A stretch of 64,000 bases of DNA from Mobula hypostoma (lineage: Eukaryota): the NCBI RefSeq assembly GCF_963921235.1, contig NC_086097.1, positions 4,774,001 to 4,838,000 on the forward strand. Reading direction: 5' to 3'. Made by a program: the position numbers and the translations under genes. The first letter of the stretch is position 1. The number at the start of each line of letters is the position of its first letter. The notes below the pieces were generated by a model. The model saw nothing but the letters and a program-made list of their open reading frames with translations, ran no database searches and was not told where the DNA came from. This document shows positions 1,083-20,744 of the stretch, in pieces.

Positions 1083-1555
1083 TGATATATAGAAATAAGT
1101 CATGTAAAAGGAAAAAAAATCGTGACGTAGCGTACAAGGTTCATTGCCAATTCAGAAATTTGATGGCAGACAATGAACCCACATACGCTATGTCACTGCA
1201 CACATCTATCAGTAAAATGGCGGAAATTGATGAGGCTATGAACCTGTACTTTCTCACAGATAACCTCACACCAATGCCCATTAGGGTGTTGCTATGATGA
1301 TATGATTCCAGATGTCATCATCTAACTCCAGACCAAAGAATTCCAGATGTGTGATTACACTAAAGCATTATTTGGTGGAGTGTGGCTTTAAGTCTCCTTG
1401 GTAGATCTGTAGTCATTGAGTAAAAGGACGAGGAGGCAGTCCTGTATTGAAGTCATATTTTACACAATGAAAAGTGGAGGTCTAGATCATCAATGTTAGA
1501 GTTCCTCACAGCAGTGTCCCAGGACAAACATGTTCTTCTGCTTCCAATATTAATC

Positions 1556-1907
1556 AGAGTCACAGAAAAGTAAAGCACAGCAACAAGCCCTTTGGACCAT
1601 CTGGTCTCTGCTGAACCATTTAAACTGCCTACTCTCATTGACCCGCACCGGGACCATAGCCCTCCATACCTCTGCCAACCATGTACCTATCCAAACTTTT
1701 CTTCAACATTGAAGTCAAGCTTGCATGCACCACTTGTGCTGGCATCTCTTTCTATACTCTCATCACCCACTGAGTGAAGAAGTTTCCCCGCATGTTACGC
1801 TTAAACTTTTCACCTTTCACCTTTAACCCCTGACTTCTGTTTGTATTCCCACTCAACCTAGTGGAAAAAGTCTGCTTGCATTTACCCTGTCTATACCCCT
1901 CATAATT
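1556..1907 (-). mobile_element. CR1 LINE 3' end fragment
   Basis: Reverse complement matches the 3' end of the CR1 copy at 15024-15378. Confidence 0.8.
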
Positions 1908-1964
1908 CAGAATTGTGAATATTCACTCCACTTGATGCTCAGTTCTATTTAATATTCCTCGACC

Positions 1965-2260
1965 AACGAGGCAGCTCTCAACTTAGTGTGCAGGAGCACC
2001 TGGACAATACATAAACATCCTCCAAGAGGAGCACAACCTTGTTGTGATTTGGAGGCTTGTGTACCTCCGTGCTCTGGAGAGCTATGCGGGCTGGAGTTAG
2101 GGGTTTATGCTTTACTCTTGGTTGGGTCACCCATGCTAAATAACTCAAAGGGTAGAGGGCAGACTAAGAGTGGTCCTCCAGGTTCGGGGGTTCAGCTCAG
2201 GTTCTAACCAACCCTGACTGGTCAAACAAAACTGTTACAGAAACGGCCAATGAAGTGTCA
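1965..2260 (+). mobile_element. RTE (Rex3/Expander-like) 5'UTR-type fragment
   Basis: Motif string ggaggcttgtgt...gagagctatgc...gggtcacccatg...cagactaagag...aaccctgac...aaaactgttacagaaac; resemblance only. Confidence 0.3.
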
Positions 2261-2284
2261 TTCATATGAACCAACATTCTCACA

Positions 2285-5200
2285 GGCAGGTTTATTAGAG
2301 CTGTTGGGGAGGGTTTAAACTGATTTGACAGGGGTTGGGAACTGGAGTGAAGAGACTCAGGATAGGATGGAGGGTGAAAAAGCAAAGATAGCGTGCAGTC
2401 AGACTGTCAGGACGGTCAGGCAGGCGATGGTTGCATAGTCGCAGCCAGCAGGGCGAGTATCAGTACATTAGGGATGCAAAGTCAAAAAGGATATCAAATA
2501 CGGTACTCAAAGTATTGTATCTAAATGTGCAGAGTATAAGAAATAAGGTGGATGATCTTGTTGCACTATTACGGATTGTCAGGTATGATGTTTTGGCCAT
2601 CACTGAATCATGGCTGAAGGATGGTTGTAGTTGGGATCTGAATGTTCCAGGTTACATGTTGTATCGGAGGGATAGGAAGATAGGCATGGGGGAGGCATGG
2701 CTCTACTGGTAAAGAATGGCATCGGAAGATGTTGAATCCTTGTGGGTTGACTTAAGAAACTGCAAGAGTGAAAGGACCCTGAAGGCAGTTGTGTACAGGC
2801 CTCTCAGCAGTGTCTGGGAAGTGAACCACAGATTACAACAGGAAATGGAAAAGGCATATCAAAAGGGCAATGTTATGATAGTCATGTAGGTCGACTGGAA
2901 AAATTAGGTTGATAATACATCTCAAGAGAGTGAGTTTGTTGAATGCCTAAGAGATGGCTTTTTAGAGCAGTTTGTCATTGAGCCTACTAGGGGATCAGCT
3001 ATACTGGATTGGGTGTTATATAATGAACCAGAGGCGATTAGGGAGCTTAAGGTAAAAGAACCCTTAGGAACCAATGATCACAATATGAGTTCAACTTGAA
3101 ATTTAATAGGGAGAAAGTAAAGTCTTATGTAGCAGTATTTCAGTAGAGTAAGGGAAATTTCAGTGGTATGAGAGAGGAGTCGGCCAAAGTAAATTGGAAG
3201 GAGCTGCTGGCAGGAATATCAGCAGAGCAGCAATGACGTGCTTTTCTCGGAAAATTAAGGAAGGTGCAGGACATGTATATTCCAAAAATGAAGAAATACT
3301 CAAATGGTAAAACAGTACAACCATGGTGACAAAGGAAGTCAAAGCTATTGTACAAGCAAAAGAAAGGGTGTACAGCAAAGCAAAAAATTAGTGGGAAGAT
3401 AGAGGATTGGGAAGTTTTCAAAAACCTACAGAGAACAACCAAAAGAATCATTAGAAGGGAAACAACGAAATATGAAAGCAAGCTAGCAAACAATGTCAAA
3501 GCGGATAGTAAAAGGTTTTTCAAGTATGTAAAAAAAGAGAGATGAGAGTGGATATAGGACAGCTAGAAAACAGGGGAAAAGGAGATGGCAGATGAACTAA
3601 ATGAGTATTTTGCAACAGTCTTCACTGTGGAAGACATTAGCAGTGTGCCTGATGTTGTGGGTGGAGTTACTGTTTCAAGGGAGAAGGTGCTCAAAAAGCT
3701 GAAAGAGCTAGTAGTACATAAGTCACCAGGACCAGATGAACTGCACCCTAGGGTTCTGAAAGAGGTAGAATTAGAGATTGTGGTGGCATTAGTAACGATC
3801 TTTCAAAAATCATTGGACTCTGGCATGGTGCTGGAGGACTGGAAAACTGCAAATTTCACTCTACGCTTTAAGAAAGGAGGAAGGCAGCAGAAAGGAAATT
3901 ATAGACCAGTTAGCCTGACTTCAGTAGTTGGAAAGATTTTAGAGTTAATTGTTAAGGAGGTGACACAATTGTTAATTGGTGACACAGGACAAGATAGTAC
4001 AAAGTCAGCATGGTTTCCTTCAGGGAAAATCCTGCCTGACAAACCTATTGGAATTCTTTGAGGAGATTACAAGTAGGACAGATAAAGGGGATGCAGTGGA
4101 TGTTGTATATTCTGACTTTCAGAAGACCTTTGACAAGGTACCACACATGAGACTGCTTAACAAGCAATGAGCCCATGGTATTACAGGAAATATTCTAACG
4201 TAAATAAAGCAGTGGCTGATTGGAAGGAGGCAAAGAGTGGGAATAAAGGGAGGCTTTTGTGGAGGGGCAGGTAGTGTTGAGGAAATAGGTAGGAACCAGA
4301 AAAACTTAGACAGATTGGGAGAATAGACAAGAAAGTAGCAATTGAAATATAATGTTGGAAAATGCATGGTCATGCACTTTGGTAATAGAAATAAATGTGC
4401 AGACTATTTTCTAAACAAGGAAAAAATCCAAGACTCTGATATGCAGAGGGACTTGAGAGTCTTTGTGCAAAATACCAACATTTCCACAATTCTGATAGAG
4501 AAATTGCAGAACCTGGGCCTCTGTACCTCCCTCTGCAATTGGATCTACGACTTCTTAACCAGAAGACCACAATCTGTGAGGATCGGTGATAAAAAATCCT
4601 CCTCTGTGACGATCAACACTGGTGCACCTCAGGGGTGTGTGCTTAGCCCACTGCTCTACTCTCTATATCCCCATGACTGTGTGGCTAGGCATAGCTCAAA
4701 TACCATCTATAAATCTGCTGACGGTACAACCATTGTTGGTAGAATCTCAGGTGGTGACGAGAGGCTGTACAGGAGTGAGATATGCCAACTAGTGGAGTGG
4801 TGTCACAGCAACAACCTGGCATTCACAGTCAGTAAGACGAAAGAGCTGATTGTGGACTGCAGGAAGGGTAAGACGAAGGAACACATACTAATCCTCATAG
4901 AGGGATCAGAAGTGGAGAGAGTGAGCAGTTTCAAGTTCCTGGGTGCCCGGATCTCTGAGGATCTAACCTGGTCCCAACATATCGATGTAGTTATAAGGAA
5001 GGCAAGGCAGTGGCTATACTTCATTGGAGTTTGAAGAGATTTGGCATGTCAACAAATACATTCAAAAGCTTCTATAGATGTAATGTGGAGAGCATTCTGA
5101 CAGGCTGCATCACTGTCTGGTATGGAGGGGCCACTGCACAGGACTGAAAGAAGCTGCAGAAGGTTATAAATCTAGTCAACTCCATCTTGGGCACTACCCA

Positions 5201-7960: not shown

Positions 7961-8216
7961 TATGTTTCTCTGGCATTATCTGCAAACGTCATAATGTCTA
8001 CCAACAGGAAGGACAAGAAAAATAGGAACGGGTGAATACCACCACTCGGATTTTCCTTGTCAAATTCCACACCATCCTGTTATGGAAATCTATCACCAGT
8101 TTCTTATAATTTCTGGTTCTAAGTACTGGAACTCCCTATCTGATGATACTGTGGGAGCACCTTAACCTGATGGACTGTAGTGGTTTAAGATTCAACATCC
8201 TCTCAAGGGCAAATCA

Positions 8217-8613
8217 ACTTACTTATCTTTACCTTATCATCCATACTGGGAGACAGGGTACTGACAGCAGCCTGCCAGAGTCCTCTGATCTGGTCATCCA
8301 ATTTGCTGAGAGAATTAAAAAACAAATCATGCAAACAATAAAAGTAAGTAAATAGCATTCAAAACTGGAGTTTTACGAAAGACGCAAAGCCAGGCATCTC
8401 TGCTCCCGGAGCAGGTCACAGACTCAGTTCATTGCAGAGCGGAGTAAACATCTGAAGTTGTCCCCAGCAAAGATCCATCCTCTCCGAGAGATAAGGTCTT
8501 TGGAGTGAATGTTGGCATTTCTGTCGCTCTGGGTTTTTACGAGGTGGGGTTGCTGGCTCTATGCCAACTCTCCTCCATTCACAGTTGGGCTTGGGAGCAT
8601 CCATGATACAGTT
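8217..8613 (-). mobile_element. Non-autonomous RTE-like retroelement (about 400 bp)
   Basis: 13-bp TSD CAAGGGCAAATCA (8204-8216, 8614-8626); minus-strand 3' tail TAAGTAAGT; 5' end CCCAAGCCC...GGAGGAGAGTTGG...GCAACCCCACCTCGTAAAAA. Confidence 0.75.
8563..8613 (-). ncRNA. Decayed twister ribozyme, 3' cleavage product
   Basis: AACTGTATCATGGATGCTCCCAAGCCCAACTGTGAATGGAGGAGAGTTGG resembles the twister pattern AAC...GGUCCCAAGCCCGG...GGAGG(A)GGG. Confidence 0.55.
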
Positions 8614-10164
8614 CAAGGGCAAATCAGGATGGGTAATAAATTCCGAGTTTGTCAGTAATGCCCAGACTGCTAAGAAGGAATAAAGAAAAGACACACAGAT
8701 TTTCGGCTCCTGATTATTATTCCTGCCAATAGTGCATGTTCCTTGGTAAAGAGCGAAGGGAGGATTAGATTAGCTTGTGAATTCCCCCACGGTCTCTTAA
8801 CCTGCAGACAATTCACTCTCAAGAATCATTAAAAGAAAATAACACTCAGCTGAGTAAGGTATTTCAAGCAGTTAACTGCTGATGAAGCTGTAGAGTACAT
8901 GGTGATGGCTCCAATAGGGAATGTACATGGAAAGAGTTGGCAGAAAAAATAGTGAAAAACATCAAAAATTCATTCAGTCCAAAGTCAATTCTTAAATTTT
9001 AGATGACAATACAGTTCAAAATCAATATTCTAAGTGCATTTCTTATCAAAGTATGTATTCAGTATACAACCCTGAAATTGGTCTTCCCCACAAACTGTCA
9101 CAAAACAGAGAACCATGCAACCAACCCATTCAAAGAAAAACATCAAATATCAAACCCCCCTCCCGCCCACTTGTAAAAATACTGCACCAGCGGCAACGAA
9201 CAAAGAGCAAAAACACAGCACATAAAACACAAAATCAAAAGGCATATTTCAGTTGAGTTCAGCTCAGCGATCATTATCAGCAGGCTGTCCGGTTCAGAAA
9301 TTGCCCAAAAGTTGTAATGAAAAAGAGCGACCAGAACTAGAACTAGAATGGGAACACATTCTGCAGTGATGCGTTTTTTCGCCTAGATATGTGCTGTTGC
9401 CAATGCAAATGATATATGTTCAGAAACCCACACTTGATGTATTATCCAGTGAATTGAATGGTCAAGGGCAAAGGAGGTTGAAGAGTCTTAGTATTTATTG
9501 TCACCACTCAGAATGGGTTGTAGGACTCAATAAGTTAATGTAATTTAAAATACCTCATCATTAGTAGTCACTGGAAGGATTAGCACAGTATCAAGGGCAT
9601 TTTACATGACCATATCGATATTTTTGCACTTCACCCAATTTCCTGAGAGATTATGTAGCTTTAGCCTTGATCAATGCCCCTATCCAATGTGCTTTCCTGA
9701 TGCTGAAATCTAAATCCATATCTTAATCTTACTAGAACCATGGACTATCACTCTCTTCACACTGATGATAGAGCATCCAAAACCTATTCCATATATCACT
9801 TGATGCTTATCATGGAACGTGACTCTGCAATGCAATTGAGATGTTTGGTCTGATTCTGAGCAAGGTGAGATATTGAAGGTGAAATATGAAAGTCACCAGG
9901 ATTCAACTGAATAAACAGAAGAAGGGAGAATACTTCTATTTGCCAGAAATAAATTATCATATTTATAATTCATGTTAAGAAATATTATATAAAATATGTG
10001 ATTAGCCATGTGTCATTTGAATCACCTGAAGGTATCATAAAAGGAATAAAAACTTGATAAAAAATTGAGTTTTTTTTCAGTTATTTTAGTATAGATTTCT
10101 GAATGCATCCTTCATTAATGTAGGGTGATGCAAGATCTTTGTAATTCATTTAGAACTGTTTTAT

Positions 10165-20169: not shown

Positions 20170-20636
20170 AGGTCAGCTATCTACAGGAAAGATGGAAATA
20201 AGGTTGAAAGAGTACAGAGAAAATTTACAAGGATGTTTCTGGGTCTGGAGGACCTGAATTATAAGGAAAGACTGAATAGGTTAGAACTGTATTCTTTAGA
20301 ATGTAGAAGATTGAGAGGAGATTTTCCACTAGGGTTGGGTGGGACTACAACCAGATGTCATGTATTAAGGGTGAAAGGTGAGAAGTTTAAGGGGAACATG
20401 AGGGGAAACTTTTTCACTTGAACTATCATGAGAGTGTGGAATGAGCTGCCAGCACAAATGGTGCATGAGAACTTGATTTCAACGTCTAAGAGAAGTTTCA
20501 ATAGATACATGGATGATAAGGGTATGGAGGGCTATGGTCCCAGTGCAGTTTGATGGAGCTAGGCAGTTTAAATGGTTTTGCACGGACTTGATGGGCTGAA
20601 GGGCCTGTTTCTGTGCTGCACTTTTCTATGACTCTA
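20170..20636 (+). mobile_element. CR1 3' fragment
   Basis: YKERLNRLELYSLECRRLRGD...KGEKFKGNMRGNFFT; tail TTCTATGACTCTA. Confidence 0.85.
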
Positions 20637-20744
20637 GGTGAAGATTGTTCCTCTTCCAGAAATGTGGTCTTTGGAGCTTCTGTAGCTCTCTGTTTTTATG
20701 AGATGAGATGACTAGACCCATGCCTAACCCTTGTCCTTTCAAGG

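Follow-up and report, generated by a model that had tools for sequence, protein, structure and literature searches.

Structure of the element in the window

The window, a stretch of 64,000 nucleotides from Mobula hypostoma (contig NC_086097.1, positions 4,774,001–4,838,000 of the forward strand), contained a short retroelement on the minus strand at positions 8217–8613. The element was 397 nt long and lay between the two copies of a 13-nt target-site duplication (TSD). It belonged to a family of short derivatives of a long interspersed nuclear element (LINE) of RTE type, in which the 5′ end of each new copy is probably set by a self-cleaving twister ribozyme. The parts of the element, in the order of its own reading direction, were as follows; UTR denotes an untranslated region, ORF an open reading frame, and RF03160 the twister-P1 model of Rfam.

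8614..8626, minus strand: upstream TSD copy, TGATTTGCCCTTG, found by repeat search; it would give the 5′ strand of twister stem P1 in a read-through transcript
8564..8613, minus strand: decayed twister-derived head, element nt 1–50, placed by a 48-copy alignment; homologous heads match RF03160
8453..8563, minus strand: family body that descends from the parent LINE's 5′ UTR and shows homology to the corresponding UTR of an RTE-like LINE of this genome
8295..8452, minus strand: foreign insert (module B), an inner piece of a second repeat family that is very abundant, found by genome search and lying outside the twister family
8237..8294, minus strand: family 3′ body, what is left of the final ORF codons of the parent LINE, common to the copies; a longer member encodes the ORF C-terminus
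8217..8236, minus strand: tail of short repeats, TAAGGTAAAGATAAGTAAGT, replaced in other copies by (AAG)n, (TAAG)n, or (TAAC)n
8204..8216, minus strand: downstream 13-nt TSD copy, found by repeat search

The repeat search of the window returned an exact direct repeat of 14 nt at 8203–8216 and 8613–8626. The TSD proper was the 13-mer TGATTTGCCCTTG (minus-strand reading; 8614–8626 and 8204–8216) and not the 14-mer, because every family copy starts with AAC; the fourteenth base was the first A of the element, which by chance was the same as the base after the second TSD copy. The exact 13-mer exceeded chance, with a best agreement of 10/12 in shifted-flank controls (0/240 better). The 5′ start of the element was AACTGTATCATGGATGCTCCCAAGCCCAACTGTGAATGGAGGAGAGTTGG (longer reading AACTGTATCATGG) and its 3′ end was GATAAGTAAGT, with TAAGTAAGT as the final letters.

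When the element was searched against its own genome (3.48-Gb assembly), nt 8–150 and nt 161–318 matched two different repeat families. The repeat at nt 161–318 gave 2391 first-look candidates, its matches were separate from those of the head, and the homology of module B continued past both ends of the 158-nt piece in 27 loci. The combination of the head and module B was found in no other copy among the 40 scored candidates of the genome search. The window copy is a chimera, in which 8295–8452 form an internal fragment of a foreign repeat inside the element. This piece carried neither end of its own family and no TSD of its own, and was located inside the TSD of the element. Module B could have been acquired by template switching in reverse transcription or by later conversion. 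A preliminary description of this DNA had reported a 13-bp TSD around a minus-strand element of about 400 bp, and its coordinates (8204–8216 and 8614–8626) were correct to the base; the boundaries of the element stood, and the foreign repeat of about 158 nt between them had been overlooked.

The twister head

The head was compared with all 4227 Rfam families in 20 loci (64 kb). RF03160 matched the head in 11 of them, with 21.7–29.9 bits and E values of 0.02–5, and gave no match outside the element heads in the same loci. Genome-wide, 62 of about 199,000 rough candidates were scored and gave nine matches at E ≤ 0.001, the best with 46.9 bits and an E value of 3.7e-6, and no match was found in 14 control genomes. 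The five best genome copies all matched RF03160, at 41.1–46.9 bits (E 1e-8 to 5e-7). The predicted cleavage site of the model, U5|A6, coincided with the junction between flank and element in 16/16 alignments: U was the last base of the flank, and AA were the first two bases of the element.

Natural intact heads were present in the copies at L109 and L111 and read AACTCCGCCATGGACGGTCCCAAGCCCGGCTGCGAAAGGAGGAGGGTTGG. The 50 nt of these heads, counted from the predicted cut, were assigned as follows.

1–2, AA: bases after the cleavage site
3–6 and 38–41, CTCC and GGAG: P2
7–9, GCC: conserved triplet
15–17 and 26–28, CGG and CCG: P4
18–25, TCCCAAGC: P4 loop
35–37, AAA: linker
42–46, GAGGG: conserved motif
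47–50, TTGG: 3′ strand of P1

The conserved letters of a putative twister were present in the intact copies, including those of both predicted pseudoknots. The 4-bp P2, formed by CTCC with the GGAG just before GAGGG, was present in the intact copies, and 89.8% of its cells paired in 48 copies. The GCC triplet and the P4 hairpin with the loop UCCCAAGC, which hold the partners of pseudoknot T2, were present in L108, L109, L110, and L111; the letters of the P4 loop were kept in 42–47 of the 48 copies. The GAGGG motif, with the partners of pseudoknot T1 and an essential A, was found in the intact copies, and the 48-copy set kept the A in 35 and the next Gs in 36 and 41 copies.

The P3 hairpin was absent from every copy. 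ATGGA stood in its place, and model positions 14–34 were deleted in all alignments. Stem P1 was not found as a family feature; its 5′ strand would be flank DNA, which was unrelated between copies. In L108, the flank happened to complete P1. The low RF03160 scores fit the absence of P3 and a P1 formed only by chance. P3 is optional and occurs in 78% of twisters (PMC6154101), and cleavage is reported to proceed without P1 (PMC6154101, PMC5113685). A search for likeness to RNA polymerase III (Pol III) genes (tRNA, 7SL, and 5S) inside the element gave no Rfam match at E ≤ 10, and the head of a classical short interspersed nuclear element (SINE) was not recognised.

The head of the window copy opened at the AA 3′ of the predicted cleavage site and was mutated in P2, the GCC triplet, P4, and the GAGGG motif, reading GAGAG where the intact copies have GAGGG. 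Two of the four essential positions, position 7 and the second G of GAGGG, were lost. Over the first 150 nt, the window copy was 80.7% identical to the family majority.

Family size and 5′ ends

A full-length probe of the genome gave at least 4513 first-look candidates, of which 40 were scored. The usual family member was 250–320 nt long, and longer forms of 456 nt (L034) and about 480 nt (L091) were found. The mean identity to the majority over the first 150 nt was 87.6%, and the common polymorphisms in this region were all CpG decay sites.

The 5′ ends were sampled with an internal 85-nt probe (L059:1556–1640) located off the head, followed by inspection of the upstream sequence in 30 copies, which included the probe's own locus. 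The alignment ran from position 1, the first A of AAC, in 21/30 copies, and from positions 1–3 in 23/30. L070, L076, and L088 had the same start by eye, with mismatches or internal deletions, and L080, L081, L083, and L087 were truncated or too diverged for placement of the 5′ end. The upstream flanks of the family copies were unrelated to each other. A TSD of at least 10/12, abutting AAC on one side and following the tail on the other, was found in 8 of 48 distinct full-length copies, compared with 6 of 240 in the shifted-flank control. The base preceding the element in the 48 copies was A in 15, T in 16, G in 11, and C in 6. These counts were near the flank composition, and therefore gave no sign of an extra cap-derived G.

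Relationship with an RTE-type LINE

The longer member L091 consisted of the head, a body of about 190 nt, and a reading frame with two stops. When this frame (X at stops) was compared with the ORF of the LINE at L092 (G000:C36:131599000-131603000, minus strand), 31/72 residues were identical over ORF residues 944–1015, with an E value of 1e-15. The L092 ORF was intact, with 1018 amino acids and the domains Exo_endo_phos (endonuclease), RVT_1 (reverse transcriptase), and DUF6451, and was followed by a 3′ UTR of 12 nt and an (AAG)n tail. The 5′ UTR of L092 shared with the short family the stretch after the twister, as read by eye. The first 95 nt of L092 were unlike the twister head and gave no Rfam match at E ≤ 10; with this different head, L092 represents a sister family and not the parent.

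The 5′ ends of the L092 family were compared in L093–L107. Twelve of the 15 fetched copies shared one start base, and their conserved head, about 95 nt long (ACCC..), stood before the same UTR module as in the twister family. A G preceded this head in 7/15 copies, a hint that the transcripts were capped and not cut by a ribozyme. The L092-type head gave a long-range helix in RNAalifold with almost no covariation; it was considered as a permuted or degenerate twister and as an HDV-like (hepatitis delta virus-like) ribozyme, and neither assignment found support. In the short family, four of the 48 copies (L072, L035, L066, and L038; alignment columns 46–49) had the GGAGGAGGG stretch without four bases (aligned GGAG), so that it read GGAGGG. 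The same GGAGGG form stood at that place in the L092 family, and would abolish the GAGGG motif of a twister.

A search for an autonomous partner with a LINE-specific stretch of L034 returned 48 candidates, which were all short, and L091, taken up as a possible partner, proved to be a short derivative as well. Metagenome contigs were scanned with a relative of the L092 ORF, and one of them held a full-length element of about 3.15 kb (L183, 971–4113), with the head at 971 and the ORF match at 1201–4052. Its ORF was broken into pieces. The head of L183 also lacked P3 and was identical to L109 in 43/50 nt, and to L059 in 81/105 nt when the UTR was included, with a mutated core. The tail was (TAAG)n, as in the window copy, and a probable 8-nt duplication flanked the element (7/8 by eye). 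L183 demonstrates that the architecture of TSD, twister head, UTR, endonuclease/reverse-transcriptase ORF, short-repeat tail, and TSD exists. Eight metagenome relatives with a complete N-terminus had neither the exact loop motif nor an Rfam match at E ≤ 5, and the head was found in L183 only. In L114, L116, and L191 (also L120 and L130), other conserved heads, with no Rfam match at E ≤ 5, preceded the same UTR module, ..GGGTTAACA..CCTGTAAAAA..GTTACAGAA... The head of this LINE lineage seems to be an exchangeable module.

The tails of (AAG)n, (TAAG)n, or (TAAC)n instead of poly(A), the very short 3′ UTR, and the TSDs are traits that we take to mark RTE-type elements. The 3′ part of the longer member, homologous to the C-terminus of an endonuclease/reverse-transcriptase ORF, and the full-length element L183 with the same head bore out the label "RTE-like" of the preliminary description. 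The assignment to RTE is supported by this architecture and by likeness to the published layout of Perere-3 (PMC8501958). A protein search with residues 560–1018 of the L092 ORF found relatives of 57–65% identity in snails, amphioxus, a cyprinid fish, a Schistosoma, and many short assemblies. The names of the relatives at about 60% identity were uninformative and did not settle the clade. Such an unusually even likeness across distant animals may reflect horizontal spread of the LINE lineage.

Comparison with known systems

The closest published system is Perere-3, an RTE family of Schistosoma mansoni; the preliminary description had mentioned twisters in Schistosoma RTE elements. According to Liu et al. 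2021 (PMC8501958), the 5′ end of Perere-3 carries twister variants that cleaved both in vitro and in reporters, and the TSD adjoins the cleavage site and forms the 5′ strand of P1. The family described here and Perere-3 share a twister at the extreme 5′ end, a TSD beside the cleavage site, a P1 5′ strand given by the flank, short 3′ repeats, and non-specific insertion sites. However, the present family has no P3 hairpin, and its carrier is an internally deleted non-coding derivative of 250–480 nt in thousands of copies, rather than the LINE itself. The hosts also differ, with a 3.5-Gb genome here, and activity was shown for Perere-3 and is predicted here.

Supplementary Document 1 of the same paper includes vertebrate T-variant entries from teleosts (such as Sinocyclocheilus, Scleropages, and Ictalurus) and snakes, which the main text leaves unanalysed. 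Some teleost entries have the same start AACTCCGCC, loop region CCGGTCCCAAGCCCGG, and AAAGGAGGAGGG stretch, and the continuation TTGGGC(A/G)TGGGG; they share P2 and the letters after GAGGG with the present family. The heads of these entries are homologous to the family heads. They differ in a P3 hairpin of about 20–45 nt where the family has ATGGA (PMC8501958). None of eight names of cartilaginous fishes tried occurs in the supplement. Part 31 of the supplement holds dozens of Aegilops tauschii entries with the start AACTCCGCC, the same 3′ strand, and unrelated upstream bases. The same 5′-end arrangement thus seems to hold in a grass, on which the main text is silent (PMC8501958).

Twisters that are "truncated but catalytically competent" at the 5′ ends of the RTE superfamily were mentioned, as work in preparation, by de la Pena et al. 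2020 (PMC7761336). The claim is the same, in that RTE elements conserve, at their 5′ ends, twisters that lack the 5′ P1 strand and serve in 5′ processing, but it occupies a single sentence without data. No follow-up to this remark, and no later or vertebrate paper on twisters in retroelements, was found among open-access papers and bioRxiv.

HDV-like ribozymes sit at the 5′ terminus of R2, RTE, baggins, and L1Tc, and also in the SIDEs (short internally deleted elements) of R2 (PMC6765202). As proposed for the present family, the element is released from a co-transcript by a self-cleaving RNA, and both the ribozyme and the 3′ end are retained in short derivatives with internal deletions. The ribozyme class differs: in HDV-like ribozymes the cut falls at the first base of the ribozyme (PMC6765202), whereas a twister loses the 5′ strand of its P1 on cleavage. 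The rice twister Osa-1-4, which has no P0, P3, or P5, is likewise a minimal type-P1 form without P3 (PMC6154101, PMC5113685). Family positions 7, 8, 19, 20, 24, and 25 corresponded to rice G13, C14, C25, C26, G30, and C31, respectively. The family differed from Osa-1-4 in a longer linker between P4 and P2 and in a P4 of three pairs followed by an A-G mismatch.

Proposed mechanism and alternative explanations

We consider it quite probable that the element at 8217–8613 is a dead, chimeric member of a short, internally deleted, RTE-type retrotransposon family without long terminal repeats, which spread by the following mechanism. Each member would consist, in order, of a 50-nt minimal twister, a segment of the LINE 5′ UTR together with the first codons, the final ORF codons, and a tail of short repeats. 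The element would have no promoter of its own and would be transcribed within longer host or neighbour transcripts. The twister would fold and cut directly 5′ of AA, and the released RNA, starting with AACUCC, would be copied by the LINE endonuclease and reverse transcriptase through target-primed reverse transcription. If the cleaved RNA is copied, a complete insertion starts with AAC, right after the TSD. The new flank at each site would supply a new 5′ strand of P1, which is dispensable for cleavage. Both the RNA cleavage and its role in setting the 5′ end are inferred here from the letters and positions of the heads.

The preliminary description had proposed the same processing, and had named beforehand two observations by which it could be judged. 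The 5′ junctions did pile up at AAC (21/30 from position 1, with unrelated flanks), and the intact natural copies did keep the letters of P2 and P4, with the cleavage site on the junction in 16/16 alignments. The 5′ strand of P1 was indeed absent from the element, the flanks being unrelated between copies. A search with the Rfam twister-P1 model, which it had suggested, succeeded for the family heads only.

Several results weigh against a cleaving head. The Rfam gathering score of 67.2 bits was reached by no copy (best 46.9 bits). The window copy, which had been described correctly as decayed, gave no Rfam match to a twister at E ≤ 10, either with the region or with a stretch cut exactly at the 5′ end, and the whole window gave no twister match at the gathering thresholds. 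In a mutational scan of the rice twister, any substitution at G13, G30, A46, or G48 reduced the relative activity to below 0.2 (PMC5113685). Position 7 of the family, the G of GCC that corresponds to rice G13, was A in 30, G in 12, T in 5, and C in 1 of the 48 copies; L059 is a natural example of the A variant. This position is the G of a CpG, and teleost relatives carry G there; therefore, decay explains much of the A. However, CpG decay is expected to give TG and CA about equally, whereas 9 T were seen at the C and 30 A at the G. Some source copies may have borne A, and with it a crippled ribozyme, yet their progeny start at AAC. Linkage of the G/A site with other sites gave no subfamily signal. 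All four essential positions were retained in only 8 of the 48 copies, where A46 and G48 were presumably mapped correctly onto the family from the GAGGG motif of the Rfam alignment.

The paired cells of the 48 heads amounted to 77.4%, compared with a shuffled mean of 77.7%, with no excess of covariation, and the pairing fell to 25–52% when the partners were slid. Dead copies decay freely; therefore, these counts say only that the ancestral sequence fits the fold and give no independent support. The pair count set the loop CCC against GGG one column off the register implied by the mutational paper, and the outcome was the same because those columns are nearly invariant. The head was not better kept than the rest of the element, with 85.9% and 88.5% identity to the majority, respectively. 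An intact autonomous partner with a twister head was not found in the Mobula hypostoma genome.

The sharp 5′ end could instead result from transcription that starts at the first base from an internal promoter of RNA polymerase II or Pol III, with the head as a non-cleaving relic, for example one that had lost P3. The A at the essential G of GCC in 30/48 copies that still start at AAC and the lack of covariation agree with such a relic, as does the L092 family, which has an equally sharp 5′ end without a recognisable ribozyme in the same genome. Nevertheless, we regard this as rather unlikely, since the element resembles no tRNA, 5S, or 7SL in Rfam, no excess of G precedes it as cap copying would leave, and the start equals the model cleavage site to the base in all 16 matches. 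Moreover, P3 is optional in twisters (PMC6154101), and thousands of copies, as well as a full-length element from a different organism, still carry the P3-less head. The head might also cleave and serve mainly elsewhere, in the start of ORF translation or in the protection or folding of the 5′ end, with uniform 5′ ends as a by-product. The family retains the start-codon region of the LINE, as read by eye, but the short elements offer no ORF of appreciable length for translation. This role is improbable as the principal one, and it largely overlaps with, and is compatible with, 5′-end formation by twister cleavage.

A chance twister likeness in a single decayed copy would account for the missing Rfam match of the window copy at E ≤ 10, and is hardly credible for the family. 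Family copies match RF03160 with E values down to 3.7e-6 genome-wide, in every case at one position and in one orientation, and homologous sequences are in print as twister variants in the supplement (PMC8501958). Chance likeness was rejected on the RF03160 matches in the sampled loci, in the whole genome, and in the five best copies.

Implications

The principle is already in print, homologous vertebrate sequences are already in a published supplement (PMC8501958), and nothing is overturned. New here are the host, the lack of P3, and the abundant short derivative as carrier. The family would extend a mechanism shown in one flatworm, the trimming of the 5′ end of RTE RNA by a twister, to a very different animal genome, and also to a non-coding SINE-like derivative in thousands of copies. 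The head is a natural candidate for a minimal twister without P3 and P1 that is directly testable, and pattern searches that require P3 or P1 miss such families.

More tentatively, and with considerable doubt, the P3-less head may be a fully active minimal twister, 5′ processing an old shared trait of a wide RTE lineage, and the heads parts that were exchanged several times. If so, the remaining intact copies would cut host transcripts that run through them, and twister 5′ processing would span fishes, snakes, flatworms, and snails in one RTE lineage. The head before the conserved UTR module would then have been swapped repeatedly for structured heads that lie outside the current RNA families.

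Second family copy in the window

The window also contained a second copy of the family at 20633–20741 on the minus strand. This copy was 5′-truncated and strongly decayed, with 67% identity over 121 nt.

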